Below are positions 11,286 to 38,521 of a stretch of 64,000 bases of DNA, piece by piece. The notes under the pieces are model-generated. The model saw nothing but the letters and a program-made list of their open reading frames with translations, was not told the DNA's origin and did no database searches. Made by a program: the position numbers and the translations under genes. Numbering within the stretch: the stretch's first letter is position 1; every line of letters starts with the position of its first letter. Origin of the DNA: a virus (lineage: Duplodnaviria; Caudoviricetes); IMG/VR virus record IMGVR_UViG_3300021400_000095. One strand, 5' to 3'.

Positions 11286-12191
11286 TTAATCCTGACTTTT
11301 TTCAAGGTCAGGATTTTTCCATACATATTTAATTAATCCACAATCATATATTCTTTCATAGTTAAGGATTGCAACCATTTGTGTTTCAGTTAGACTTAAA
11401 TCAAGTCCATATTTCTTATGTAATATTTGTTTTCTAAAATTAAACTTATGTTGTCTAATAATTCCATCACTTTCTTTAAAATAATGATAATCTGGGATTG
11501 TATAATAATCAAATTTAAAGCCAAGTTGCAGATATACATTATTACTTTCATCAACAGTCCATCTTCTATCAGCAAATGATTTAATTATAATTGGATTGTA
11601 TTTTCTTGTAAAATATTTAAATAGTTTTCCACCAACACCTTGACAAACATAATTATAATTACTTGCAAATCTTGTTAATTCCCATCTATTATTACCCTTT
11701 TCTTCTTCCTTAAATTGCATAACAGCAATAAGTTCATTATTATAATAAGCACCAAGATAAACTGAAGATGCAACAAAACCTTGGATATGATATTTATTCA
11801 AAAATGCTTTTGAAGTAAATTTATCAATTTCTCTAATATCACATTTTCTACCCATAATTTTAGGCATATTTTCACATTTTTTGAGAATATGTTTAATTTT
11901 ATTAAGAACAATATCCTTATTCTGAACATATTCATCCTCAAAAATCTGCAATAATCTTATACCCTTTTCTTTACAAGCATCTGTTCTATCTCTTTGATAT
12001 GTTTTTATTGAATAATAATCAGGATGTTCAACTAAACCATTGAACTGTATTGCTGCCTTTATTTGTGGTATATAAAAAGACAATTCATATGGTGCAATTA
12101 TTGTATTATCATCACAAATTATTTCACCATCAAACAATGTTCTGATATATTCATATATCTCTTTCTTAATCTCACTATTTGTCATAAGCAT
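11286..12191 (-). CDS. Degenerate homing-endonuclease-like protein with C-terminal Mom-like GNAT domain
   Basis: Paralog of the C-terminal half of 33642..35366; nuclease motif altered (ELSF..AAIQFNG vs ELDI..IAIEFDG); WELTRF, GVGGKLF, SFADRRW, IYDCG. Confidence 0.6.
   Translation of the reverse strand: MLMTNSEIKKEIYEYIRTLFDGEIICDDNTIIAPYELSFYIPQIKAAIQFNGLVEHPDYYSIKTYQRDRTDACKEKGIRLLQIFEDEYVQNKDIVLNKIKHILKKCENMPKIMGRKCDIREIDKFTSKAFLNKYHIQGFVASSVYLGAYYNNELIAVMQFKEEEKGNNRWELTRFASNYNYVCQGVGGKLFKYFTRKYNPIIIKSFADRRWTVDESNNVYLQLGFKFDYYTIPDYHYFKESDGIIRQHKFNFRKQILHKKYGLDLSLTETQMVAILNYERIYDCGLIKYVWKNPDLEKSQD
11288..11318. terminator. Intrinsic terminator after tail tube
   Basis: AATCCTGAC...GTCAGGATT followed by a T tract. 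Confidence 0.7.
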
Positions 12192-12201
12192 TATTTTTTG
12201 T

Positions 12202-12233
12202 CAAATATACAAAGTTTAAATATAAAAAACAAA
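12202..12233 (-). promoter_or_regulatory. Bacteroidota-type sigma promoter
   Basis: TTTG-N20-TATATTTG. Confidence 0.65.
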
Positions 12234-12240
12234 CAAGGTT

Positions 12241-13047
12241 TTATCTCCAACCTTGTTTTAACTTATCTTTTTTAACTTTTATAATAGTTCTACCAATTCT
12301 ATGTAAAAAATTGTTTAACTGTTTTTCAATATATGGCATTGTTATTCCATATAAATTAAAATAATCAGTAAACACTTCTTTTAAACCATCATTAATTTTT
12401 AACTCATTAAAATTTTCTTTTGCTGTTAAATACAAATTCCATGTTTCTGAAGAAGTTAATAAATCATCATTATATGGTTCTTGTTTATCCATCATATATG
12501 CATATAATCCATTTGAAAAACCTTCTTGTTCAGACTTTATACACAAATATAATAATTTGGCCAATTTTTGTTTATTTTCACTTTTTGATTCCAAATCAGT
12601 TTTTATTTTTTCATATAACCCATTTGAATCACCAAATTCATGCCCCATCTTTTCTTGTTGAAAAATGTGTTCCACTTTATGTTGTATTGTTTCCATGGAT
12701 TTTGGTTTATCAACTGTTCCATTTATTGCATAGATGTTAATAAACATCATGGCAAGTCCTTTATTTATAAAAATAGAACCACCATCTGTTATATAGGACA
12801 AATTATATTTTTCCTTAAAATCTTTACTTAAAAAATTCCTATATATTACAGAACTAACAATTTTTATCTTATCAATATAAGAAACAATGGAAATCTTTTT
12901 TTTTATTAACAAGTTATTTTTTTCTATAATTTCAGCATTGTTTAATTTACTAATAATTTCATTATAAAACTCATTAGAAAACCTTGCAACATCATCATTT
13001 ATACTCAATTCTTCTTCTATGATTTTTTTTATTTCTTCAGTTAACAT
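12241..13047 (-). CDS. Leader-bearing zincin-family protein, catalytic Glu lost (HKVEH)
   Basis: MLTEEIKKIIEEEL leader; TIQHKVEHIFQ aligns with ILQHEIEHVFQ of 35392; downstream E..GF.N..Y. Confidence 0.6.
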   Translation of the reverse strand: MLTEEIKKIIEEELSINDDVARFSNEFYNEIISKLNNAEIIEKNNLLIKKKISIVSYIDKIKIVSSVIYRNFLSKDFKEKYNLSYITDGGSIFINKGLAMMFINIYAINGTVDKPKSMETIQHKVEHIFQQEKMGHEFGDSNGLYEKIKTDLESKSENKQKLAKLLYLCIKSEQEGFSNGLYAYMMDKQEPYNDDLLTSSETWNLYLTAKENFNELKINDGLKEVFTDYFNLYGITMPYIEKQLNNFLHRIGRTIIKVKKDKLKQGWR

Positions 13048-13079
13048 GCTCTATTTTTATAATACAGACTTATTTTTTT

Positions 13080-13955
13080 TTATAATCCATTTTGCCTTAA
13101 AATCTCTTTGAATTTCCAATCTCTTTCCTTTTCTCTTTCTTCTTCCATTTTTATTGTATATAATGAATATGCCATACCAACTTTTCTAATTAAATATTTG
13201 AAGCCATTCTTTGAAACTGTTTGGAAATACTTTTTAGTTTTATCAAAGTTTTCATAATTCTTAATTATATTATGATTAATTAAATACCAACATGCAGTAA
13301 TGAACAATGTATTTTGACTATTATATTTGCTAATATTGTCATATGAATTCTTTAATGTTGAATATAAATCTGATATGAGATTATCATAAATGAAATCTTT
13401 ATATGTTTTATATTCTTTTTTCTTTTTTATAGCAGAAGCATATGCCCCATTAACAAATGAATTTATCTCATTTTTATTGCAATAATATAATATCTTGCAT
13501 AAATAAGCAACTATTGGGTTATTATTACTCATCCCTTTTATAATATCCTGATATCTGTCAGTAGAAATTGGTTTGTTTTTCATTTTACATTCCCAATAAT
13601 GACTACATTCATGTTGGATTGTGTCTGTTAAATCATAATAATCTATTTCATTCCCAAATTGCAAAACTGTTAAATATAAAGTATTTTCTTCAAATGAATA
13701 TCCATTATTCCTATGTGTTTTTGAATACCATACATAGAATTCATCAGTGCTGTTAAAATATTTAAACATAAAATCAACATATAAATCAGACATTTCTGTT
13801 GCTACCCTAAACTTTTTTTCTTTTATGTTTTTCTCCAATAAAGTATATATGTCCTTTTCAATTATGTTTGTTAATTTAACAACCTCTTTTGCAATACCTA
13901 AATCTTCATTCATTAGATATCTAACCTGTTCCTCTGTTAATATTACTTTTTTCAT
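13080..13955 (-). CDS. Leader-bearing zincin metallopeptidase-like protein
   Basis: MKKVILTEEQVRYLMNE leader; HECSH plus downstream E..SFVN. Confidence 0.65.
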   Translation of the reverse strand: MKKVILTEEQVRYLMNEDLGIAKEVVKLTNIIEKDIYTLLEKNIKEKKFRVATEMSDLYVDFMFKYFNSTDEFYVWYSKTHRNNGYSFEENTLYLTVLQFGNEIDYYDLTDTIQHECSHYWECKMKNKPISTDRYQDIIKGMSNNNPIVAYLCKILYYCNKNEINSFVNGAYASAIKKKKEYKTYKDFIYDNLISDLYSTLKNSYDNISKYNSQNTLFITACWYLINHNIIKNYENFDKTKKYFQTVSKNGFKYLIRKVGMAYSLYTIKMEEEREKERDWKFKEILRQNGL

Positions 13956-14077
13956 ACATATATAATTAATATATCTTTTTAATAAATGTCAAGTTTGTTA
14001 ACTTAATAACAATAAAAAAAAAGCATAGAAATATTTTTCATATCCCTATGCTTTTTAAAATTTTATTTAATTTGTTG

Positions 14078-16834
14078 TTATTCGTTGAAAGACACACTTT
14101 CAGGGTAGACAACAAATGTTATGCTAATATATTCAAGTGCAGGTGTAGGTTTAACAAGGATTTTTGCTGGAAGGATGTGTTGGTCTCTTGTTTCAGGTGT
14201 TGATTCAGTTTGAATTCTATAATCAACAATACCTCTATTAGACTTAACATCAGCAAGAATTGGTTCTACAAGTGACTTAAATTGTTTTTCAAGGGTTGCA
14301 TCATATTGTTCAAAGATAAGATGTTTAGAAGCCTCAACAACAAGTTTCTTAATTCTAAGCATAAGTCTTCTAACATTAATTCTATTAAGAGGGCTTTCCT
14401 TATCATATAATGTCTTATTACCCCAAACTTTAACACCATCTTGTGCAAATGTCTTGATAGGATTAACTCTATTTTCATAAAGTGTATCTTCATCAGAAAG
14501 AGTTGTCTTAATATCAGCCTTAATACAATCAATATTACCTCTTTCAGTACCAGCAGGTGCAAACCATGGGAATGAGTTATTATCTGTTGCAGCCATATTT
14601 CTAACAACATCCTTTGTTACAGGAAGTGTAAGATATCTCTTAGCAGAATTATCATAATATTTAATCCATGGCCAGTATGTACAAGCATAAGAAGATACAA
14701 TATCACTATCATTAACTGCTTCAGCAATTAAATCTGCTGTTTTAACTTCATTAACATCCATTGGTGAGTTAATGATATAAAGTGCATCACCACCTCTACC
14801 ATCCTCAGGGTCTTCAATCATATCAAGAGCATCTTCTACAAGAAGTGTGTGATGGAAGTAATCAATACCAGGAGTTGCAAACAAGTTAATATAAGAATCT
14901 TGTGGATTTGCAAATTGCATATAACCTGCAAGATATGCATAATAGTCACTTGTAATTGCATTTACTGGAAGATTAAGGTCAAGAGTTGGGTCAAGTACTA
15001 ACTCAGATGAATTAACATAATCAAATGGGCAACCTGAAACAATTGCATATTTAGATGCCTTATATTTATCTGTATTAGTTCTTTCAGCCCTATAAATATC
15101 CCAACCATCAAAGCCACCATATGGATAAACAGTGAACTTTCTTAAGTTAATGTCTTCATAAATTGTTCCCTCAGTCTGAGCCTCAGTAATAAGTCTTGGA
15201 AGTTTCTTTGATTGTGCAGCAGCTTGAAGTCCATCAACTGTTGTAAATGAATAACCAGATTCACTATCAACAAAAATCTTACTATTCATCAAGACATTTG
15301 TTCCAGAAACACTATTGTTATTTGGCATTGAAAGAATTGCATCAAGGTGGAAACCCTTAGTAAGTTTATCAGGGTCAGCATCACCCTTTCCATTTGCATA
15401 TGCAGTTACACCATTATAGTTAAGAACATCAACATCAAGGATATCTCTATTCAAGCCAAAATATTGTCTCTTAGGTTTAATGAAATCATTGAATTCAGTG
15501 TTATATGCAACATCAATTCTTTCACCACCATACTTAGGCATTGGATAACCTAAGAAACCACAAGGAACACAAGATTCAACACCATCTTCCTCTGAAATTT
15601 CAACTGTGATGTATTTTGATTTAGCAACATAGCCACCATCAAAAGTACCAATCTTAGCACCAATATAGTTATTAGTACCAGGCATCATTGAACAATTGGT
15701 GAATTTTTCAAGTACAACAGGTGATACATCACTATCATTGAAGTCTCTTACCCAAACATCAAATAAACCCTCATCAGGTCTGATTCTTTGAATAGAAATC
15801 TTAACTTGTCTATTAGCAGCATCACCATCAGAAATTGTATATACCTTGAAAAGTTTCTTAACATTGATTGCTTCATTAGTTGCTTCTTTAACCTCTGATA
15901 CAATCCAAGGGGTTTGTGCACATCTATATGTTTCTTTATAGTTTACATAATTTTCATTACCACTTGATTCAAGACCTGCTGTTGCAATATCTTCAAATTT
16001 AATTGTTTTATTTTCATTTTCAGGCCTTCTAAGTAAGTCTTGATATGCATAGTCATATAATGCTTCAATATAAACAGGTGCTGAACCTACAAGTGGGTCA
16101 GTGCTGAATACATTGTAAATATATGACCTATCAGTAGGATTAATTGAAACATTGTAACTTGTCTCAGTTGAAGCACTTACAATATTACCATTTTCATCTT
16201 CACTATACTTATTATATGTAATTTTAAGGCCAAACTTACCAAGTTCTACTTTACCATCATTTGAAACAGCAGTTCCACCACTAATTTTACCACTGAGTGG
16301 AATATTTGCTGATACACCACTAATCACACAGTTTGCATCATATGTGGCACTACTATAAGGAACAAGTTGTACTTTAGTAACAATAGGATTGAATGCTTCT
16401 TGTTGTGCTTTTTCACATTCACCACCATTAACATTAGCATAATAATTAGCCTTTGACCTAAGAATTACAAGTGGGTACTTTTTACTATCAATATTAGCAT
16501 AAACACCAAACACTTTACTATTTTCATAACCAGAGATACCAAGAACCCTAACAACATTAAGATTCTTTGATTCCTTCAAGTATTCTTTAGCAACATATGG
16601 AAGTTCATATTTAGGGAGGTCATTACCCTTATACTTTTCAGGTGATGTACCACCAAAGTAGTCTACAAAGTCAGCCCAATCAGTTACAGGTATTGCTTGA
16701 AATGCAGGTCCTTTAAGTGTTTCACCAACAAGACCAAGGCTAGTAATACCTAAGCTTTTAGCTGAGTAAAGAACATCTTTCTCTTCAGTATAAACACCTG
16801 GTGAAACATGACCACCTCTTGCATCACTTATCAT
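14078..16834 (-). CDS. Tail sheath protein (T4 gp18-like)
   Basis: VSPGVYTEEKD, GETLKGPAF, PWFAPAG..RG, LYENRVNPI, WGNKTL, LNRINVRRL. Confidence 0.93.
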   Translation of the reverse strand: MISDARGGHVSPGVYTEEKDVLYSAKSLGITSLGLVGETLKGPAFQAIPVTDWADFVDYFGGTSPEKYKGNDLPKYELPYVAKEYLKESKNLNVVRVLGISGYENSKVFGVYANIDSKKYPLVILRSKANYYANVNGGECEKAQQEAFNPIVTKVQLVPYSSATYDANCVISGVSANIPLSGKISGGTAVSNDGKVELGKFGLKITYNKYSEDENGNIVSASTETSYNVSINPTDRSYIYNVFSTDPLVGSAPVYIEALYDYAYQDLLRRPENENKTIKFEDIATAGLESSGNENYVNYKETYRCAQTPWIVSEVKEATNEAINVKKLFKVYTISDGDAANRQVKISIQRIRPDEGLFDVWVRDFNDSDVSPVVLEKFTNCSMMPGTNNYIGAKIGTFDGGYVAKSKYITVEISEEDGVESCVPCGFLGYPMPKYGGERIDVAYNTEFNDFIKPKRQYFGLNRDILDVDVLNYNGVTAYANGKGDADPDKLTKGFHLDAILSMPNNNSVSGTNVLMNSKIFVDSESGYSFTTVDGLQAAAQSKKLPRLITEAQTEGTIYEDINLRKFTVYPYGGFDGWDIYRAERTNTDKYKASKYAIVSGCPFDYVNSSELVLDPTLDLNLPVNAITSDYYAYLAGYMQFANPQDSYINLFATPGIDYFHHTLLVEDALDMIEDPEDGRGGDALYIINSPMDVNEVKTADLIAEAVNDSDIVSSYACTYWPWIKYYDNSAKRYLTLPVTKDVVRNMAATDNNSFPWFAPAGTERGNIDCIKADIKTTLSDEDTLYENRVNPIKTFAQDGVKVWGNKTLYDKESPLNRINVRRLMLRIKKLVVEASKHLIFEQYDATLEKQFKSLVEPILADVKSNRGIVDYRIQTESTPETRDQHILPAKILVKPTPALEYISITFVVYPESVSFNE

Positions 16835-30447: not shown

Positions 30448-30705
30448 ATGTGTAAAGAAAACTTTGATAACCTTGAATTTAAGCCTTTTATAGAAACACC
30501 AGATGATGTTGCAGGATATGATGAGTTAGAAATAAATGAAGTTGCTTGTAATAGTGTTGGAATTAAATTGTTTGAATTTGACTTGAATGATGATATTGCA
30601 GATATTGCACTTGATGAAGATAAAGTTAAAGAAGTGTTCCCTGACTTTATAATCAAAGAAGGAAAAGGTTATGTACTTGGTAATGAAAATGGCTTGTACA
30701 TTTAA
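30448..30705 (+). CDS. Hypothetical acidic protein
   Basis: ORF after host-type promoter 30386-30417. Confidence 0.55.
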   Translation: MCKENFDNLEFKPFIETPDDVAGYDELEINEVACNSVGIKLFEFDLNDDIADIALDEDKVKEVFPDFIIKEGKGYVLGNENGLYI

Positions 30706-30755
30706 TTTTGGGAACTATATACAAGTTGTCCACAATAGGAATAGATAGACAGATT

Positions 30756-30932
30756 ATGAAGAAGATAAAAGTTGTATTGTCTGAAGGTGTATATGTTATA
30801 AAGCCAAATGATGACAACAAAGATAGTGTTGTGCTTGAATGTGACACAAGAAAAGAATGGACAGATTATTTAACAAGCCTCCCAAACCCACCAAGACACA
30901 TTGTTGTAAGTACATTGGTTCAAAATCTTTAA
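30756..30932 (+). CDS. Small hypothetical protein
   Basis: Likely ATG start MKKIKVVL within ORF 30708..30932. Confidence 0.4.
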   Translation: MKKIKVVLSEGVYVIKPNDDNKDSVVLECDTRKEWTDYLTSLPNPPRHIVVSTLVQNL

Positions 30933-31030
30933 TAAAGATTGGACAACAAGTATATAATTTCCTTAATTTTTATTATGTTTCACAAACATAATGTTTGAGA
31001 TGAATAAAACACACATTGTAGTATGTGTGT

Positions 31031-31062
31031 TTTGTTTTTTTATAGGTTTTTTTGTATTTTTG
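31031..31062 (+). promoter_or_regulatory. Bacteroidota-type sigma promoter (polymerase N-half)
   Basis: TTTG-N20-TATTTTTG. Confidence 0.7.
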
Positions 31063-31102
31063 TAAAAAATGATGTCTAATGATAGACTTTAATTGAATTG
31101 TT

Positions 31103-33598
31103 ATGGCTGAAAATTTGAACAAAGAAATTACAGATGAAGTAATTGAAACATTTTTGAATGGGCATGACCCACAAGAAAGAATTGTAAATATTGAATATTC
31201 CTATAGAGATAATTTCATGAAAGTATATTATAGGAATGAAAATGACCAAAAATGTATGTCCATGGAATCATTTTACCCATTTGTTTGGGCAAGACTTGAT
31301 ACCTGTGTTTCATTGTGTGGTGGTGATAGAAAAAAATTGAAACTCCTTATGCAACAATGTGGTATTGAAGTAAAATCACTTGAATATACAACAAAAGATG
31401 GAGTTGAAATACCTGAAATGAAAGATGGTTATAGATTCATGTTCAAGGCAAGAAAACCAATGTCTTATACTGAATTCCTTGACTTCTTTAAGAAATGTGA
31501 TTTTCCAATATATTCAGATAAAAAAATAAATAACATTGAAAGACCTTTCCTGTGTGTTACACCTCAGGAACAATTTCTTATTTCCACAGGTAAAAGATTT
31601 TTTAAAGGATATGATGATTATAATCAAATCCTTAGACTTACCTTTGACTTGGAAACTGAAGGTCTTGACCCAACAAGGCATAGAATTAAACTCATTGGTA
31701 TCAAACTTAATAGACCTGTCATAATAAGAGGCAAACTATATGATAATTTTGAAAGAATATATAGACTTGAAGGAAATACTGAACAAGAAAAAAATGCATC
31801 TGAATTAAAAATTATAGATACATTCCTTAGAATTATATATACATTTAAGCCTGATGTTATTACTGCACATAATGGTGAAAACTTTGACTGGTCTTTCATC
31901 ATTGAAAGATGTAATCAACTTGGTACAGATATTGATACTGTTTCAAAACCATACTTTAAAGGAAAAACAATATATAAAAACCCAAAGGAATCAATTCTTA
32001 AACTTGGTGGTGAAGTTGAAACCTTCCATCAAACAGTTGTACCAGGAATCATTGTAACTGATTCACTACATGCTGTTAGAAGAGCACAAGCAACAGATTC
32101 AAATTTTAAGGAAGCAAACCTTAAATATTCTGCAAAATATCTTGAAACTGTTAAACCAAACAGAGTTTATGTTCCTGGTGATATTATTGATAAAACACTT
32201 ATTGATGAAACACCTTCCTATGCTTTCAATAATAATGATGGTACTTGGTATAAAATATCTGAAGATAAGCCTATTAAAGAAAACTATGAAGTTGTAACAG
32301 GTAAATACATTGTTGAAAGATATTTGTTTGATGACCTTCAGGAATGTAATGATGTAGAATTGAAATTGAATACAGCTAGTTTCTTACTTTCAAAAATTCT
32401 TCCACTATCATTTCAAAAATGTTGTACAATGGGTACTGCTGGACAATGGAAATCTCTTATGATGGCATGGTCCTATGAAAATAATCTTGCAATTCCATTT
32501 GCTGAAAATACTGGAAAATTCACAGGTGGCCTTTCAAGATTACTTAAAGTTGGTGGATGTGGACCAATTGTAAAACTTGATTATAACTCACTGTATCCTT
32601 CTATTATTCTTACTTGGGCAATTGAAGATGAAAAAGATATTTCAGGTGCAACACTGAAATTCCTTAACTATATCCTTACAACAAGAGAGAAATTTAAAGG
32701 AATAAAAAAATCAGCAAATAAAATTGTTGAAAAATATGAGGACAAAATTAATAGTGGTCAAACTTTAACACCTGAAGAAAATGAAGAATACCATAAAGCA
32801 CTAGGCACTTTCTCAGCAGCAGATAAAACACAGAACCAAATGAAGATAATGGGTAACTCATTCTTTGGTGCATATGGGTCAAACCTTGGCTCAGTATATC
32901 CTTGGAAATCTGTTAAATGTGCTGAAAGAACAACTTGTACAGGAAGACAATCACTTAGATTAATGATTTCTCATTTTACTAAGCTTGGCTATGAACCTAT
33001 TGTGGGTGATAGTTTTACACCTGATACACCAATGTTCATAAAATACAAAGATAGTGGATTAATTGATATTAAACCTATTGAAGAACTTATTAATGAGAAA
33101 GAAATAAAGATTGATGCACTTGGAAGAGAATATGATTATTCCAAAAAAGATTATTATGTTTTATGTAGAAGTGGATGGGTAGAACCTAGTTATATTTACA
33201 GGCATAAGACAGAAAAGGATATATATGAAATCACTGATGGTGAAATGAAAGTTGAAGTAACTGAAGACCATAGTTTATTTAATTCTAAACAAGAAAAGAT
33301 TAAACCAAGTGAGATTACTAATAAAACAGAATTAGAATACTATACTGAAGAAGTAAGACCTGATGGATATACAAGATATTTTGCAACACAAGCACCTCAG
33401 GCAAAACAAATGGCAATGGATTTGGCTAATGGTAAAATAGACAGAGTACCAATGAAAGTTTTAAATTATCAAGAAGTATATCAAAAAATTTTCTATGATA
33501 CATTTATTGAAAATTATAAAAATGATATTAAATATAGTAAAACTTGTCTAGCTGGTTTACAATATATTAGAAAAATGCTTATGGAAAAAAAATTTTAA
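31103..33598 (+). CDS. Family B DNA polymerase, N-terminal half fused to N-intein
   Basis: ExoI FDLET, ExoII HNGENFD, motif A DYNSLYPS, motif B K...NSFFG, motif C truncated at IVGD then intein. Confidence 0.93.
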   Translation: MAENLNKEITDEVIETFLNGHDPQERIVNIEYSYRDNFMKVYYRNENDQKCMSMESFYPFVWARLDTCVSLCGGDRKKLKLLMQQCGIEVKSLEYTTKDGVEIPEMKDGYRFMFKARKPMSYTEFLDFFKKCDFPIYSDKKINNIERPFLCVTPQEQFLISTGKRFFKGYDDYNQILRLTFDLETEGLDPTRHRIKLIGIKLNRPVIIRGKLYDNFERIYRLEGNTEQEKNASELKIIDTFLRIIYTFKPDVITAHNGENFDWSFIIERCNQLGTDIDTVSKPYFKGKTIYKNPKESILKLGGEVETFHQTVVPGIIVTDSLHAVRRAQATDSNFKEANLKYSAKYLETVKPNRVYVPGDIIDKTLIDETPSYAFNNNDGTWYKISEDKPIKENYEVVTGKYIVERYLFDDLQECNDVELKLNTASFLLSKILPLSFQKCCTMGTAGQWKSLMMAWSYENNLAIPFAENTGKFTGGLSRLLKVGGCGPIVKLDYNSLYPSIILTWAIEDEKDISGATLKFLNYILTTREKFKGIKKSANKIVEKYEDKINSGQTLTPEENEEYHKALGTFSAADKTQNQMKIMGNSFFGAYGSNLGSVYPWKSVKCAERTTCTGRQSLRLMISHFTKLGYEPIVGDSFTPDTPMFIKYKDSGLIDIKPIEELINEKEIKIDALGREYDYSKKDYYVLCRSGWVEPSYIYRHKTEKDIYEITDGEMKVEVTEDHSLFNSKQEKIKPSEITNKTELEYYTEEVRPDGYTRYFATQAPQAKQMAMDLANGKIDRVPMKVLNYQEVYQKIFYDTFIENYKNDIKYSKTCLAGLQYIRKMLMEKKF
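33011..33598 (+). mobile_element. Split intein, N-fragment (195 aa)
   Basis: Starts SFTPDTP (block A, Ser1) right after IVGD; block B VTEDHSL; ends at a stop with no block F/G. Confidence 0.9.
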
Positions 33599-33641
33599 TA
33601 GTGCTTTTTTTGGTTCTTATACTATTTATAAATAAAAAAAT

Positions 33642-35366
33642 ATGTTAAAAGAAAACAGAGAAATAAAAAAAAGAAATAGATACAATACAGAAACATTTAT
33701 TGAAAAAGCAAGAAGTTTAGAACATTGTGCAAATTATGATTTTAAAAAAAGTGTTTATAAAGCATATAATAAAAAACTTGTTGTAACTTGTCATGTAAAG
33801 GATGAAAATGGTAATGAGCATGGTGATTTTTTAATTACTCCTGGTCATTTATTTGAAGGACAGGGGTGTCCTGTTTGTAGATATATTAAATCTGCAAAAT
33901 CAAAAAGAAGGACATTTGATGAACTGGTTAATGATGCAAAAAAAGTTCATGGTGATAAATATGATTATAGTTTAATAACTGATTACAAAAATGACAGGAT
34001 TAAGTACCCAATTATTTGTCCAGAACATGGTATTTTTTATCAAACAATGAACAATCATATAACAGGAAAGCAAGGTTGTCCTACTTGTGGCAGAAACCTT
34101 GCAGATGAAAAAAGAAGGTTAACAACTGAAGAATTTGTTGAGAAAGCAAGAAAAGTTCATGGAAATAAGTATGATTATTCAAAAGTAAACTATGTTACAA
34201 GTGATGAAAAAGTTTGCATAATATGTCCTGAACATGGTGAATTTTGGCAAACACCATCAAATCATTTAATGGGGCAAAGATGTCCTCAATGTGGAAACAT
34301 AAGCAGAGGAATATTAAAAAGATTAACAACTGAAGAATTTGTTGAGAAAGCAAGAAAAGTTCATGGAAACAAGTATGATTATTCAAAAGTAAACTATGTT
34401 ACAAGTGATGAAAAAGTTTGTATAATATGTCCTGAACATGGTGAATTTTGGCAAAGCACAGGTAATCATTTACAAGGAAATGGATGCCCAAAATGTGCAC
34501 CACTATATTCAAAACCAGAAAATAAAGCACTTCAATTTGTTTATGATGTTCTTGGAGAAGAAAATGTAGAAACAAGGAATAGAATAATTTTAAGAGGAAA
34601 AGAATTAGATATCTATATTCCAAGTAAAAGGATTGCAATTGAATTTGATGGGATTTTTTGGCATAATGAATTAACTAAAGACAAATATTTTCATATTAAC
34701 AAAACCATTGAATGTGAAAAGAATAACATTCATTTAATCCATATTTTTGAGGATGAATGGAAATACAAACAAGACATTATCAAATCAATGTTATTAAACA
34801 TATTTGATAAAACACCTAACAAAATTTATGCAAGGAAATGTGAAATAAGAGAAGTATCTGCACATGATGCCAGTACATTTCTTGACAATAACCATCTTCA
34901 AGGCAAATGTGGCTCATCTGTAAAATTAGGTTTATATTATAATAATGAACTTGTTTCTCTTATGTGTTTTGGTAAATCAAGACATTTTGTTGGCAATGGG
35001 AAACATCAATGGGAATTACTTAGATTTTGTAATAAGTTAAATACCAATGTTATTGGAGGTGCTAGTAAATTATTCAAGCATTTTATTGAATTGTATAATC
35101 CTGAAGAAATTGTTTCTTATGCTGACAGAAGATGGTCAACAGGAAATTTATATAATGTTTTAGGATTTAAATTATATAATAAGTCACAACCAAATTATTA
35201 TTATGTGATTGGAGATAAAAGGTATTATAGGTTTAATTTTAGGAAAAGTATTTTAGTTAAAAAATATGGCTGTCCTGAAAATGTGAGTGAGCATGAGTTT
35301 TGTCTTTCACAGCATTGGTATAGAATTTATGATTGTGGCTGTTTATGTTACAAATGGGAAAAATAA
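33642..35366 (+). CDS. Free-standing homing-endonuclease-like protein: Zn-ribbon repeats, PD-(D/E)xK nuclease, Mom-like GNAT domain
   Basis: Four C..HG.F...H..G..CP.C units; ELDIY..IAIEFDG.FWH; WELLRF, GGASKL, SYADRRW. Confidence 0.8.
   Translation: MLKENREIKKRNRYNTETFIEKARSLEHCANYDFKKSVYKAYNKKLVVTCHVKDENGNEHGDFLITPGHLFEGQGCPVCRYIKSAKSKRRTFDELVNDAKKVHGDKYDYSLITDYKNDRIKYPIICPEHGIFYQTMNNHITGKQGCPTCGRNLADEKRRLTTEEFVEKARKVHGNKYDYSKVNYVTSDEKVCIICPEHGEFWQTPSNHLMGQRCPQCGNISRGILKRLTTEEFVEKARKVHGNKYDYSKVNYVTSDEKVCIICPEHGEFWQSTGNHLQGNGCPKCAPLYSKPENKALQFVYDVLGEENVETRNRIILRGKELDIYIPSKRIAIEFDGIFWHNELTKDKYFHINKTIECEKNNIHLIHIFEDEWKYKQDIIKSMLLNIFDKTPNKIYARKCEIREVSAHDASTFLDNNHLQGKCGSSVKLGLYYNNELVSLMCFGKSRHFVGNGKHQWELLRFCNKLNTNVIGGASKLFKHFIELYNPEEIVSYADRRWSTGNLYNVLGFKLYNKSQPNYYYVIGDKRYYRFNFRKSILVKKYGCPENVSEHEFCLSQHWYRIYDCGCLCYKWEK
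34119..34455 (+). repeat. 133 bp internal direct repeat (34119-34251 and 34323-34455)
   Basis: Two synonymous mismatches, 204 bp period; duplicates one Zn-ribbon unit. Confidence 0.9.
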
Positions 35367-35391
35367 TATGTTTATATAAAATGATAAAATA

Positions 35392-36279
35392 ATGAAAAAA
35401 ATAATATTAGATGAACAAACTAAGAATGAATTAAAGAACATAATTAATGAAGAACTAACTATTAACAATGAGATTAATCTTCTAACAACTTCAATTTATT
35501 CTGAAATAAAAAAGAACATTAAAAATGTAAAATATTCACCATTAAAACAAGATGTTTCTTTTGGTATATTACATTTAAAAAATATAAACATATTTGGATT
35601 AAAATTCAGTATTAAAATTACTATATACAACACAAATAAAAAAGAATCTTATAAGCAAATGTGTGAAGAATATGATTGTTATAATGGATATACTAATTTT
35701 ACAGATAATATTATTAACATAAATATTGGTGTCCTCAGTGGGTCAAGATATATTGATTTTGAAGGTATTCTGCAACATGAAATTGAACATGTTTTCCAAT
35801 ATACCAAAAAGAATAATCAAATAAACACAAAAATAGGCCAAAGCATTTATAAAAAGGCTTTCAACATAATCCAAAACTCTGACAATTATAACAAATATCA
35901 GTTTTATTGTGCATATCTAATTTATTGTTTGTCAGATAATGAGGTAGATGCTTTTGTTAATCAACTTTATAGGGATATTGTAAATGGAAATGCTTTAAAT
36001 GATGAACCTATTATACAAAACTCCACTATAATGCAAAATTATTTGAATTGCAAAAAAATATTAAATAATCTTGATATTAATAATAGATTTTATCAAATGG
36101 CACTTATGTCAATAGGTTTTGATACTGAGAAAAAACAAAAACAATTTATCAAATATTGTAACAATGCTCTTAAAAGAATGATAAACAAAATTGGTAAAAC
36201 TATTGTAAAAGCAAGAAAAGATTTAATTGAAAAAAAAGATGTTGCTGTGCAACTTAATAATTTGAAAATTGAAAATTAA
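35392..36279 (+). CDS. Leader-bearing zincin metallopeptidase-like protein
   Basis: MKKIILDEQTKNELKNIINEEL leader; HEIEH; EVDAFVNQLY. Confidence 0.7.
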   Translation: MKKIILDEQTKNELKNIINEELTINNEINLLTTSIYSEIKKNIKNVKYSPLKQDVSFGILHLKNINIFGLKFSIKITIYNTNKKESYKQMCEEYDCYNGYTNFTDNIININIGVLSGSRYIDFEGILQHEIEHVFQYTKKNNQINTKIGQSIYKKAFNIIQNSDNYNKYQFYCAYLIYCLSDNEVDAFVNQLYRDIVNGNALNDEPIIQNSTIMQNYLNCKKILNNLDINNRFYQMALMSIGFDTEKKQKQFIKYCNNALKRMINKIGKTIVKARKDLIEKKDVAVQLNNLKIEN

Positions 36280-36291
36280 TTTATATATTTA
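36261..36291 (+). promoter_or_regulatory. Variant Bacteroidota-type promoter (polymerase C-half)
   Basis: TTTG-N19-TATATTTA, 16 nt before ATG 36308. Confidence 0.5.
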
Positions 36292-36307
36292 CAAAAAATT
36301 TAATGTG

Positions 36308-36406
36308 ATGAAAATTTTAAATAAAGGTAAATGTTTAGATTATGTATATGATATATCATTAGATGGCACTGTAGTTAATGCATTGGGTATGAATATCTTA
36401 TCAAAT
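36308..36406 (+). mobile_element. Split intein, C-fragment (33 aa)
   Basis: Block F YVYDIS, block G ILSN followed by Thr+1. Confidence 0.9.
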
Positions 36407-37894
36407 ACCGATGGGTTCAATTTCAAATTGCCTGATGAATCAAAATACAGATATACTAAAGAGCATCCATATGTCAGTACAGGTCTTTCAAGGGAAACTA
36501 AAAAAGATAAAGAATATGTTGGTTATGAAGCAGATGTTGCTGAATTTAATGACCAATATATGTGTGACATGCATTATGATGATAAAGCTGTTAACAAAAT
36601 GGGACTTGGCATAGACGAAATACTTAATTTCTCCTGCAACATTTCAAGAAAGAACTATTTGGATTATTTTCCAGAAAAGCCATATCCAAAGGATGTTAAG
36701 ATTGTTGGTAATACTTTAAAGTCAAAAAAATTGCCAATATATATACAGAATTTCATGGATAAGGGATTCAGATTGTTGTTACAGAATAAGGGTAGTGAAT
36801 TTCTTGAAGAGTATTACAATTATATTGAAAAGATTTACAATTTTAAGATACCACTTAAGGACATTGCCAGTAAAGGAAAGGTAAAGAAATCAATTGAGGA
36901 TTACATTGCTGATTGTGAAACAGTGACAAAGGCTGGAAATAAGAAATCAAGGCAAGCATGGATGGAGTTAGCAATTAAGAACAATGTAAAAGTTGATTTA
37001 GGTGAAACATTATATTATATAAACACAGGGACAAAGAAGTCACATTCTGATGTTAAGAGAATTACACATTATAATATGACTGATGATAGTGGTGAAATAA
37101 AAGATATAAAGACACAATTGGACAGAGAGTGGAAGAAAGCAGAAGATGGTAAAGCAGGTGTCAAGAAATCATTGAAATTTGATGAATGGGTAAAGAAACA
37201 TTATCCAAATGTAAAAATTAAGGATGAAATTGTTCTATGTGCTGAGTTATTACCAAGAGAAATTGTTGAATCAGATAAGGACTTTTATTGTGAAGAAGGA
37301 AAAGAATATAATGTTGAAAAGTACATTGACCAGTTCAATAAAAGAATTACACCACTATTAGTTTGTTTTTCAAAGGAAATCAGGTCAAAGATATTGATTA
37401 ATAAGCCAAATGAAAGGCAATATTTTACTGAAGAACAGACTGTTCTAACTTCAGGTGAGCCAAACAAGGAAGGAGACCAGGACACATATGAACAACTTAT
37501 GACAATGGAAGATAAGGAAATTAAGTTTTGGCTTGACCATCCTGAATGGAAGATTCCATTCTTAAAGGAATGTGATATGGATTGGGAAAAAATCAAGACA
37601 GATTATCTTGAAAGAAAAGAGAAGGAAAGACAATTTGGTATTGACAAAATTAGGGAAGAATTTGACAATGCAATTAACAATTTAACTCCTGAAGAAATTG
37701 AGAAGATTGATGATGGAAAGATACCAGCAAGTATTGAAAAAATTGCAGACATTGACCCATTGACTTTTAATTTTGTTAGTAAAATAGATAATAGTGTTGT
37801 TCTTGGTACTATTTATGATATCATAGATGCACAAACATATCAACAGGAAAAGAAAAGTTCTACAATGGAATATGTTCTTGAAAATAATAGTTAA
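36308..37894 (+). CDS. Family B DNA polymerase, C-terminal half preceded by C-intein
   Basis: TDG completes motif C; RKNY, K..G; ATG 36308 follows its own promoter-like element. Confidence 0.9.
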   Translation: MKILNKGKCLDYVYDISLDGTVVNALGMNILSNTDGFNFKLPDESKYRYTKEHPYVSTGLSRETKKDKEYVGYEADVAEFNDQYMCDMHYDDKAVNKMGLGIDEILNFSCNISRKNYLDYFPEKPYPKDVKIVGNTLKSKKLPIYIQNFMDKGFRLLLQNKGSEFLEEYYNYIEKIYNFKIPLKDIASKGKVKKSIEDYIADCETVTKAGNKKSRQAWMELAIKNNVKVDLGETLYYINTGTKKSHSDVKRITHYNMTDDSGEIKDIKTQLDREWKKAEDGKAGVKKSLKFDEWVKKHYPNVKIKDEIVLCAELLPREIVESDKDFYCEEGKEYNVEKYIDQFNKRITPLLVCFSKEIRSKILINKPNERQYFTEEQTVLTSGEPNKEGDQDTYEQLMTMEDKEIKFWLDHPEWKIPFLKECDMDWEKIKTDYLERKEKERQFGIDKIREEFDNAINNLTPEEIEKIDDGKIPASIEKIADIDPLTFNFVSKIDNSVVLGTIYDIIDAQTYQQEKKSSTMEYVLENNS

Positions 37895-37928
37895 AAAAAA
37901 GACTAAGTTTAATTACTTAGTCTTTTTT
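37894..37928. terminator. Bidirectional terminator
   Basis: A tract-GACTAAGT...ACTTAGTC-T tract. Confidence 0.75.
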
Positions 37929-38521
37929 CTATCTTTAATATTTCCATCAAATTCAAGTTGAGCAGTAAAGATATTTCCTTTATTATCAACCAATTTAATT
38001 TTTCCTTCAGACAAGCCTATTTGTTTAAGACTTGCACTTTCATTAAGTGGTTGTTTTGAAAAATAATCTGAAATACATTCTTTAACAATTGCTTTTATTA
38101 TAGTATAATCAATACCAGCAGAAGTTGAACCATATTGTTGAACAGGTATTGATTTTTGTGAAGACATTTCAGTGATTTGTTGTTTTTTTGGTGATGGTTG
38201 TACCATTGATAAAGCATTACTCAATGATGCATCTTCTCCAACATTAATTGGATTGCTTTGCATTGATTCAAGGATTTCTTTTGGCATGTTGCTATTTTGG
38301 AAAGCATTAGGTGAATAAGCATTTATATTAGGTACATATGGTTTATCTTCTGATTCTGAAAGTCTGAAATTATCCCATTCATCAGAAAATGTATTAGGGT
38401 CAACATCTGTAGCCATTTGTGATTTTCCTACATGTTTATTAACAAGTTTATCACCATTTTCATTACATAATTGTCTTGACCTATTTAAAACTTGTGCTAA
38501 TTGTTCTGGTGTAAGTGCCAT
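37913..38521 (-). CDS. Hypothetical protein, likely virion-associated
   Basis: In a late-motif operon; contains ITE and LNE sites. Confidence 0.55.
   Translation of the reverse strand: MALTPEQLAQVLNRSRQLCNENGDKLVNKHVGKSQMATDVDPNTFSDEWDNFRLSESEDKPYVPNINAYSPNAFQNSNMPKEILESMQSNPINVGEDASLSNALSMVQPSPKKQQITEMSSQKSIPVQQYGSTSAGIDYTIIKAIVKECISDYFSKQPLNESASLKQIGLSEGKIKLVDNKGNIFTAQLEFDGNIKDRKKTK

Follow-up and report, generated by a model that had tools for sequence, protein, structure and literature searches.

Virus record IMGVR_UViG_3300021400_000095 of IMG/VR (Duplodnaviria; Caudoviricetes) was analyzed over a stretch of 64,000 nucleotides, referred to here as the window. Between positions 31103 and 37894, a family B DNA polymerase (PolB) is encoded in two halves that are predicted to carry the two parts of a naturally split intein, with two further genes in the gap between them. 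All four open reading frames (ORFs) are intact and lie on the + strand. The first (31103..33598; 831 amino acids [aa]) comprises the N-terminal part of the polymerase, or N-extein (31103..33010; 636 aa), which contains the exonuclease domain and polymerase motifs A and B and ends in EPIVGD, its last residue being the first Asp of motif C. The same ORF continues into the N-terminal intein fragment (IntN; 33011..33595; 195 aa), which forms its 3' part, begins with SFTPDTP, passes through VTEDH, and runs to the stop codon. The start of the C-terminal intein fragment (IntC; 36308..36406; 33 aa) lies 2.7 kb after that stop; its block F reads YVYDISLDG, and its block G ends in ILSN, with the terminal Asn at 36404-36406. 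The C-extein follows directly (36407..37894; 495 aa plus the stop codon), opens with Thr+1 (36407-36409) of the sequence TDG, and contains the palm and thumb. Two starts are available to this last ORF, a TTG at 36269 and an ATG at 36308, and it ends at 37894. The ATG is favored because 97 of the 120 C-half relatives listed have a short IntC (60 aa or less), and 87 of these 97 have 33 to 34 aa before TDG.

The N-extein is recognizable as polymerase, as evidenced by matches to Pfam DNA_pol_B_exo1 (E = 9e-12) and DNA_pol_B (E = 5e-7) and to the PHROG family phrog_262, DNA polymerase (E = 9e-47). An earlier note on this DNA had described a split intein at motif C, with Ser1 and Thr+1 as nucleophiles, Ser in the penultimate position, an IntC of 33 aa, and two intervening genes, and all of these points were borne out. 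Uninterrupted orthologs, with which the note proposed a comparison, define the junction. The N-extein is 76% identical, up to the junction, to the unsplit polymerase P0059 (1144 aa), and the C-extein is 70% identical to and colinear with residues 649-1143 of the same protein. Because P0059 reads straight through the junction as YEPIVGD-TDGFNF, the insertion of 195 + 33 residues is exact to the residue, between D and T of motif C. A continuous VGD-TDG is also found in L004 and in many other loci. Removing the 195 + 33 residues yields a polymerase of 1131 aa in which motif C is restored. The split also explains why the PolB of these jumbo phages is annotated as two "hypothetical" genes.

The insertion point VGD|TDG matches the pol-c position. 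This site, YGD|TDS, is used by archaeal polymerase inteins, the Mimivirus PolB intein, and the split Nanoarchaeum Pol intein (PMC549080). An AlphaFold2 (AF2) model of IntN, built for the lone fragment without IntC (overall pLDDT of 77), has three parts, namely a beta-rich Hint part, a disordered linker, and a four-helix module. The Hint part (33011..33340; residues 1-110) holds Ser1 (33011-33013), a DTP motif, Arg64-His65 as its NX motif (33200-33205), and Thr84-Glu-Asp-His87 (33260-33271), the last of these being the block B, or N3, motif TEDH. The linker (33341..33388; residues 111-126) is of low conservation, with a pLDDT below 50 at residues 109-125. The model matches eleven inteins with VIA Z-scores of 8 to 11, covering residues 1-113 or more, and its Hint part superposes on the intein Mvu TFIIB (Z of 9.7) and on the split inteins Aes123 PolB1 (Z of 8.9), PolB16 (Z of 7.8), and Neq (Z of 7.2; root mean square deviation of 1.8 Å over 75 residues). 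The top rows of a Foldseek search are likewise all inteins, with weak E-values (0.013 or worse).

Sequence comparisons point in the same direction. Four relatives (P0123, P0153, P0273, and L028) have contiguous inteins of 353 to 356 aa at the pol-c site, with two LAGLIDADG motifs and an ending in HN. Identity to the splicing part of IntN is 42% for the P0123 intein (E = 4e-27) and 50% for the L028 intein. The latter also matches PI-PkoII of KOD polymerase (E = 2.7e-5), with which it is colinear over a stretch that includes the second LAGLIDADG motif and block G. In the PDB, IntN is closest in sequence to NEQ068 (E = 0.014), which is the N-half of the split Neq intein; the same search returned no match to inteins of the Aes123/PolB16 type. 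These two signs of pol-c kinship, to NEQ068 and PI-PkoII, are weak and consistent with the site. From the sequences, we assign the 195-aa IntN and the 33-aa IntC to the pol-c allele family as a naturally split class 1 intein.

Residues that serve the splicing reaction are conserved throughout the family. In an alignment of 117 N-half relatives (60 to 100% identity), Ser1, Asp5-Thr6-Pro7, Arg64-His65, Thr84, Asp86, and His87 are invariant, and Ser1 directly abuts IVGD; Ser1, DTP, Arg-His, and the N3 motif residues are also present in two further split N-halves outside this alignment. An Arg/Lys-His NX motif is a signature of Ser1 oxyester inteins (PMC10189870). On the other side of the gap, the core YVYDISLDGTVVNALG is kept across the 97 short IntC sequences, whose final residue is Asn (90 sequences) or Gln (7 sequences) and is followed by Thr+1 in every case. 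The last two residues are SN in 82 of the 97, KQ in 7, and HN in 4. Rough dN/dS ratios, for which dS is near saturation, range from 0.09 to 0.15 for the Hint part, from 0.15 to 0.28 for IntC, and from 0.09 to 0.26 for the exteins; judged by these ratios, both polymerase halves and the intein parts are under purifying selection. Together with the low dN/dS, the conservation of Ser1, Arg-His, Thr..His, and the terminal Asn or Gln indicates that residues needed for chemistry alone, and not for docking, are being maintained. Moreover, the two catalytic aspartates of motif C lie on either side of the break, and so, going by established PolB structure, an unexcised domain of ~228 aa would be expected to occupy the active site. 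Because the splicing residues are conserved, selection is purifying, and the break falls in motif C, we consider it highly probable that the halves are actively trans-spliced by the class 1 oxyester route.

In the mechanism that we propose, the two halves would be translated separately, probably from a single four-gene transcript, and IntN and IntC would dock and fold into a Hint domain. An N-O acyl shift at Ser1 would be followed by transesterification to Thr+1, cyclization of the terminal Asn, and an O-N shift, and excision of the intein would leave the 1131-aa polymerase with an intact VGDTDG motif C. The ancestor would have been a contiguous LAGLIDADG intein that lost its first endonuclease half-domain and had its frame broken inside the second. 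The Hef-like endonuclease gene that now sits at the break is the likely present-day mobility agent.

Several observations weigh against splicing and must be set beside this evidence. The penultimate IntC residue is Ser, without the usual His; Ser-Asn is the family norm, and contiguous relatives at the pol-c site keep the penultimate His. Seven relatives have Gln in place of the terminal Asn. The intein hidden Markov models (HMMs) suggested as a check in the earlier note match at the correct residues but score below their cutoffs, both for Pfam Intein_splicing PF14890 (13.9 bits versus 35.8) and for TIGR01445 intein_Nterm (20.1 bits versus 24.5; E = 1e-3). Also, residues 70-110 of the IntN model have a pLDDT of only 56 to 62, which is expected for a lone IntN and by which a complete fold is not proven. 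The missing His and the subthreshold HMM scores would suit a noncovalent, two-subunit polymerase in which the intein is a splicing-dead clasp and the halves only dock, as would the intein-less C-halves of the clade that start just after TDG and imply that unspliced two-piece enzymes can be viable. Nevertheless, we regard such a clasp as improbable: it would leave the retention of Ser1, Arg-His, and Thr..His in all 117 N-halves and of Asn or Gln at the end of all 97 IntC sequences unaccounted for, and it would leave an entire domain sitting between the catalytic aspartates. Penultimate His is common in inteins without being obligatory, and inteins that lack it can splice.

Joining of the halves at the RNA level, by an intron or by trans-splicing, or through translational recoding, with the intein-like ends being incidental, has a precedent close by in that a group I intron interrupts the polymerase gene of L011 (12827-13131; RF00028, 70.6 bits). 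Group I introns are also described as frequent in the related Jug phages (PMC12880540). In the window, an Rfam scan of 30500-38500 up to E = 1 returned no intron family and only one chance small RNA hit, and so the intron that the earlier note had named as a counterexplanation does not appear there. At both junctions, the in-frame sequence that directly adjoins the exteins shows homology to intein blocks A/B and F/G, and the gap itself consists of two intact, conserved genes or, in L005-L008, of four genes on the opposite strand, all of which makes joining by RNA or recoding very unlikely. Just as remote is the idea of an assembly artifact or a decaying pseudogene whose work is done by another, intact polymerase. 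The view is of a 64-kb window, and such a second polymerase could lie elsewhere in the genome. However, the same split architecture recurs in more than 100 distinct protein clusters and in 11 independent IMG/VR loci, which excludes the misassembly also considered at the outset; all four ORFs are intact, and dN/dS is well below 1.

In the trans-splicing intein that we favor, IntN does not end with the Hint part and linker. Its tail (33389..33598; residues 127-195 and the stop codon) is helical, and residues 127-194 are modeled as four helices with a pLDDT of ~90. Three elements are kept in the tail: an "RVP..LN" loop, the second LAGLIDADG helix, which lacks its catalytic acid, and then a "SKTCLAGL" helix. 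ENYKND stands in place of the catalytic GDG acid block, and the beta hairpin has become shorter. When 61 distinct tails were aligned to the contiguous inteins by hhalign, the match (probability of 90%; E = 1.7e-6) spanned the second LAGLIDADG motif and the next helix. The three top structural matches of the whole IntN model are LAGLIDADG-bearing inteins, aligned across residues 1-194: PI-TkoII (Z of 11.1; 190 residues aligned), followed by the TliVMA intein and PI-PfuI. Set against a two-helix LAGLIDADG enzyme, the second-motif region alone is recognizable, and the model contains helices only and no beta sheets. The suspicion in the earlier note that the tail is a LAGLIDADG remnant is thus upheld, and the alignments and model support its being a relic of the second half-domain and not an enzyme.

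Because the tail aligns to the second LAGLIDADG motif, the chain appears to have been broken inside the former endonuclease domain. This is what the published gene-breaking model, in which a free-standing endonuclease invades an intein, predicts (PMC2677866). Within the relic, R145, P147, N152, F161, F165, K177, C179, A181, and G182 are invariant in 117 of 117 sequences. As read from such conservation, the stump is under selection, and the surviving helical relic probably has a structural role. It may serve as a folding or antiaggregation cap or as a docking aid for an otherwise disordered IntN. More tentatively, we raise the possibility, which we think rather unlikely, that the stump is retained for a present job and that the pol-c site is the scene of an active contest between the contiguous LAGLIDADG intein and the split-intein/Hef cassette. 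If the stump does have a job, the intein would represent a distinct, "extended" type of natural split intein; if there is a contest, the contiguous intein and the split-intein/Hef cassette would be replacing each other in nearly identical polymerase genes.

In the protein encoded by the first gene in the gap (33642..35366; + strand; 574 aa), treble-clef Zn modules are repeated, the core is Vsr/PD-(D/E)xK-like, and the C-terminal domain is Mom/GNAT-like. The protein matches phrog_559 (E = 1.5e-147) and phrog_3339, "homing endonuclease" (E = 1.4e-102), as well as Pfam DUF4379 and DUF723 and, weakly, Mom, MTES_1575, and Vsr. It is 36 to 40% identical, over 93 to 99% of its length, to "Hef-like homing endonuclease" genes of cultured phages, and 1437 phage records match it. 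We identify the gene from these similarities as that of a free-standing Hef-like homing endonuclease. As a separate observation, residues ~400-530 resemble Mom/GNAT acyltransferase folds, with a Pfam Mom match at E = 2e-4, a match to phrog_1384, and a weak match to glyphosate N-acetyltransferase.

The second gap gene (35392..36279; + strand; 295 aa) encodes a putative metallopeptidase with the HExxH sequence HEIEH. Its family has 204 representatives, from phages, and in 60 sequences H129, H133, and E184 are invariant and E130 is nearly so. The earlier label of "zincin" holds for this invariant HExxH...E pattern and not for the fold: although the AF2 model is confident (pLDDT of 91), Foldseek against the PDB gave TM-scores below 0.2, and VIA-align gave generic helical matches alone (Z of 7.9 or less; residues 149-290). 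Searches of Pfam, PHROG, and NCBIfam gave no match, and those of the Atlas gave unnamed viral clusters only. Elsewhere in the window, at 11286-13955 on the - strand, a second cluster of the same kind lies between tail-like genes. Its nuclease, a 301-aa Hef-like protein without the Zn modules, shares 40% identity with the gap endonuclease over residues 316-573 of the latter and is accompanied by two paralogs of the HExxH protein, one with HECSH and the other with HKVEH, in which the catalytic Glu is lost. The pairing of the Hef-like nuclease family with the HExxH family therefore recurs.

Features of the locus that had been singled out as unusual, namely the long IntN, the penultimate Ser, and the extra gap genes, turn out to be family-wide. 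More than 100 distinct N-half relatives (60 to 82% identity) are ~830 to 850 aa long and cover 99% of the N-half, including the tail. Genomic contexts, drawn from the IMG/VR loci, show that the gap content varies: one endonuclease gene in L001, L017, and L022, two in L002, a truncated one in L011, and the HExxH gene alone in L003. In L005-L008, the gap (11603-15905) holds four genes on the opposite (-) strand over 4.6 kb, which encode 627, 392, 287, and 116 aa and have no Pfam hit; with such genes in between, the polymerase halves there must be transcribed separately. Cultured phages gave no DNA-level match to the locus, tblastn with the C-half found no match in INPHARED, and the weak matches of IntN among cultured phages are limited to the PolB genes of three Pseudomonas jumbo phages. 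By these searches, no cultured phage has a close relative of the polymerase locus.

A maximum-likelihood tree of 28 N-exteins was used to follow the alleles. Split, contiguous, and empty states are interleaved on this polymerase tree, and the split state needs at least 6 changes, as forced by well-supported branches. For instance, L022, which is split and has an endonuclease gene, and P0123, which has a contiguous LAGLIDADG intein, are 91% identical over 774 aa and 97% identical over 531 aa; their exteins are almost identical, and the differences within the 774 aa are expected to lie mostly in the intein. Likewise, L003 (split) and L009 (empty) are sisters with ~90% identity. The interleaving and these near-identical pairs indicate that the element is now being gained, lost, or swapped. 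Patterns of nucleotide identity near the junction are suggestive only of coconversion tracts, for which we make no claim. Between L001 (split) and L004 (empty), identity falls from 0.88 to 0.95 far upstream to 0.74 to 0.82 in the last 160 codons before the junction. For the window and L003, synonymous identity is slightly higher in the vicinity of the junction; a control comparison of two empty loci showed a rise at the junction as well.

A further state was seen in P0294, P0299, P0311, P0328, P0295, P0315, P0346, and P0361, whose C-halves begin immediately past TDG and lack an IntC or have an unrelated leader of ~35 aa. The motif C hotspot is thus fractured also without an intein. The gp43 gene of Aeromonas phage 25 is likewise fractured without one. 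Empty, contiguous-intein, split-intein, and intein-less fractured states of one polymerase site accordingly coexist in this clade, and with a pair whose exteins are nearly identical and whose occupants differ, they clearly document, in nature, the route by which a contiguous intein is proposed to give rise to a fractured gene.

With regard to expression, a promoter-like site of the Bacteroidota type (TTTG ... TAnnTTTG) lies at 31031..31062 on the + strand, ~40 nt upstream of the N-half. This call rests on position, given that the motif count over the whole window is at chance level, and the site overlaps the tail of a terminator-like hairpin at 31002-31037. It is the sole + strand site of its type in the four-gene block; none precedes any of the other three genes. 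Directly 3' of the C-half is a second terminator-like hairpin (37895..37928; + strand), which is bidirectional and lies between convergent genes. These two hairpins are the only + strand terminator-like sites in 30800-38100. Since terminator-like hairpins bracket the four genes with none in between and the sole promoter-like site precedes the N-half, one four-gene transcript is the simplest reading, and we infer that it is probably the actual one. A separate promoter for the C-half, as claimed earlier, is not supported, there being no Bacteroidota-type site before the C-half and only chance-level sigma-70-like matches (59 versus 48.9 +/- 5.9).

The word TATAAATA occurs 8 to 15 nt upstream of the endonuclease start. 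It is a late-promoter word of the T4/Aeh1 type that was noted upstream of such endonuclease genes by Dassa et al. (PMC2677866). At 33623-33634, the window has a palindromic TATTTATAAATA that holds TATAAATA on both strands and ends 8 nt before the endonuclease start codon; the window contains 29 copies of TATAAATA, versus 16 +/- 4 expected. No significant regulatory hairpin of the kind described by Dassa et al. was found upstream of the endonuclease gene (fold z of 1.0).

Among known systems, the Neq split Pol intein has an IntN of ~98 aa, versus 195 aa here. Reportedly, according to its structure paper, it uses oxyester chemistry with Ser1 and Thr+1, and to our knowledge it has neither an endonuclease relic on IntN nor an endonuclease gene between its halves. 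Like the present intein, Neq (NEQ068/NEQ528; PDB 5oxw, 5oxx, and 5oxz) is naturally split and interrupts a family B polymerase at the pol-c site (PMC549080). It is cysteine-less (PMC10189870). The two inteins share a Lys/Arg-His NX motif before block B, but Neq comes from a hyperthermophilic archaeon in whose genome the halves are unlinked, whereas the halves here belong to a mesophilic gut phage and lie 2.7 kb apart in the same orientation.

Cys nucleophiles are used by the inteins of the fractured genes that Dassa and colleagues described in 2009. Those genes (gp41-1, NrdJ-1, IMPDH-1, DnaE, and others) resemble the present locus in that the host gene is present as two co-oriented genes at one locus and in the Vsr/PD-(D/E)xK-like core of the endonuclease, as given in the accessible portion of the report, where PolB is not among the fractured hosts listed (PMC2677866). 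With a predicted endonuclease gene between two such halves, the locus is a fractured gene in their sense. It differs in its second, non-nuclease gap gene, in the retained LAGLIDADG relic, and in the lack of a significant hairpin upstream of the endonuclease gene.

Natural split inteins have also been described in phage or metagenomic PolB proteins, namely Aes123 PolB1, CP21 PolB1, LCGC14 PolB2, and PolB16 OarG, the last from a sheep-gut metagenome; they have Ser1 and Ser/Thr+1 and are active at ambient temperature (PMC11923092, PMC12707363, and PMC10189870). They share the NX histidine signature with the present intein, which has three noncatalytic Cys residues, unlike these cysteine-less inteins. 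The PolB16 insertion follows GDTD, two residues downstream of the site used here, and the fragments differ in size, with 120 + 39 aa for Aes, 15 + 168 aa for PolB16, and 195 + 33 aa here. The pol-c site itself is shared with PI-PkoII/PI-TkoII of KOD polymerase (PDB 2cw7/2cw8) and the Mimivirus PolB intein, which are single chains with an intact endonuclease, whereas the present intein has a catalytically empty helical stump and a broken chain. PI-TkoII is among the cited Ser1 inteins with Ser/Thr at +1 (PMC10189870).

The Jug phages of Bacteroides/Phocaeicola have genomes of 360 to 402 kb and inhabit the gut, and the accessible portion of the paper on them reports that group I introns, endonuclease genes, and putative inteins often break up their genes and that the DNA polymerase genes are frequently split by endonuclease sequences (PMC12880540). 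That portion does not describe a split intein, its site, or its chemistry. The arrangement in the window is thus of a published kind and common in related phages, combining a fractured gene, a pol-c intein, and a Ser-type split PolB intein. What is modestly new is that the LAGLIDADG stump is under selection and that occupants competing for one site coexist.

Ambient-temperature split inteins with Ser/Thr junctions are few, those named being Aes123, CP21, LCGC14, GOM-OPS-1, and PolB16. Split inteins of this type are wanted for protein ligation under oxidizing conditions or alongside thiol chemistry, and the family described here, from gut phages that are mesophilic, provides well over 100 naturally occurring variants. 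Also, IntN has a folded appendage built in, and its removal or retention is relevant to the known problem of IntN aggregation.

Two further observations concern interruptions of the C-extein. The group I intron of L011 lies in the C-extein, ~75 codons after the intein site. At the same position, L001 has a gap of 338 nt (13589-13927) with no Rfam match; the window has no such insertion. Finally, in P0244, P0245, and P0256 (411 aa), which are 99% identical to the C-half in the window, the ORFs open only at ...DYFPEKPY, which suggests either that the C-extein is interrupted once more in a strain-specific manner or that the genes were called too short.

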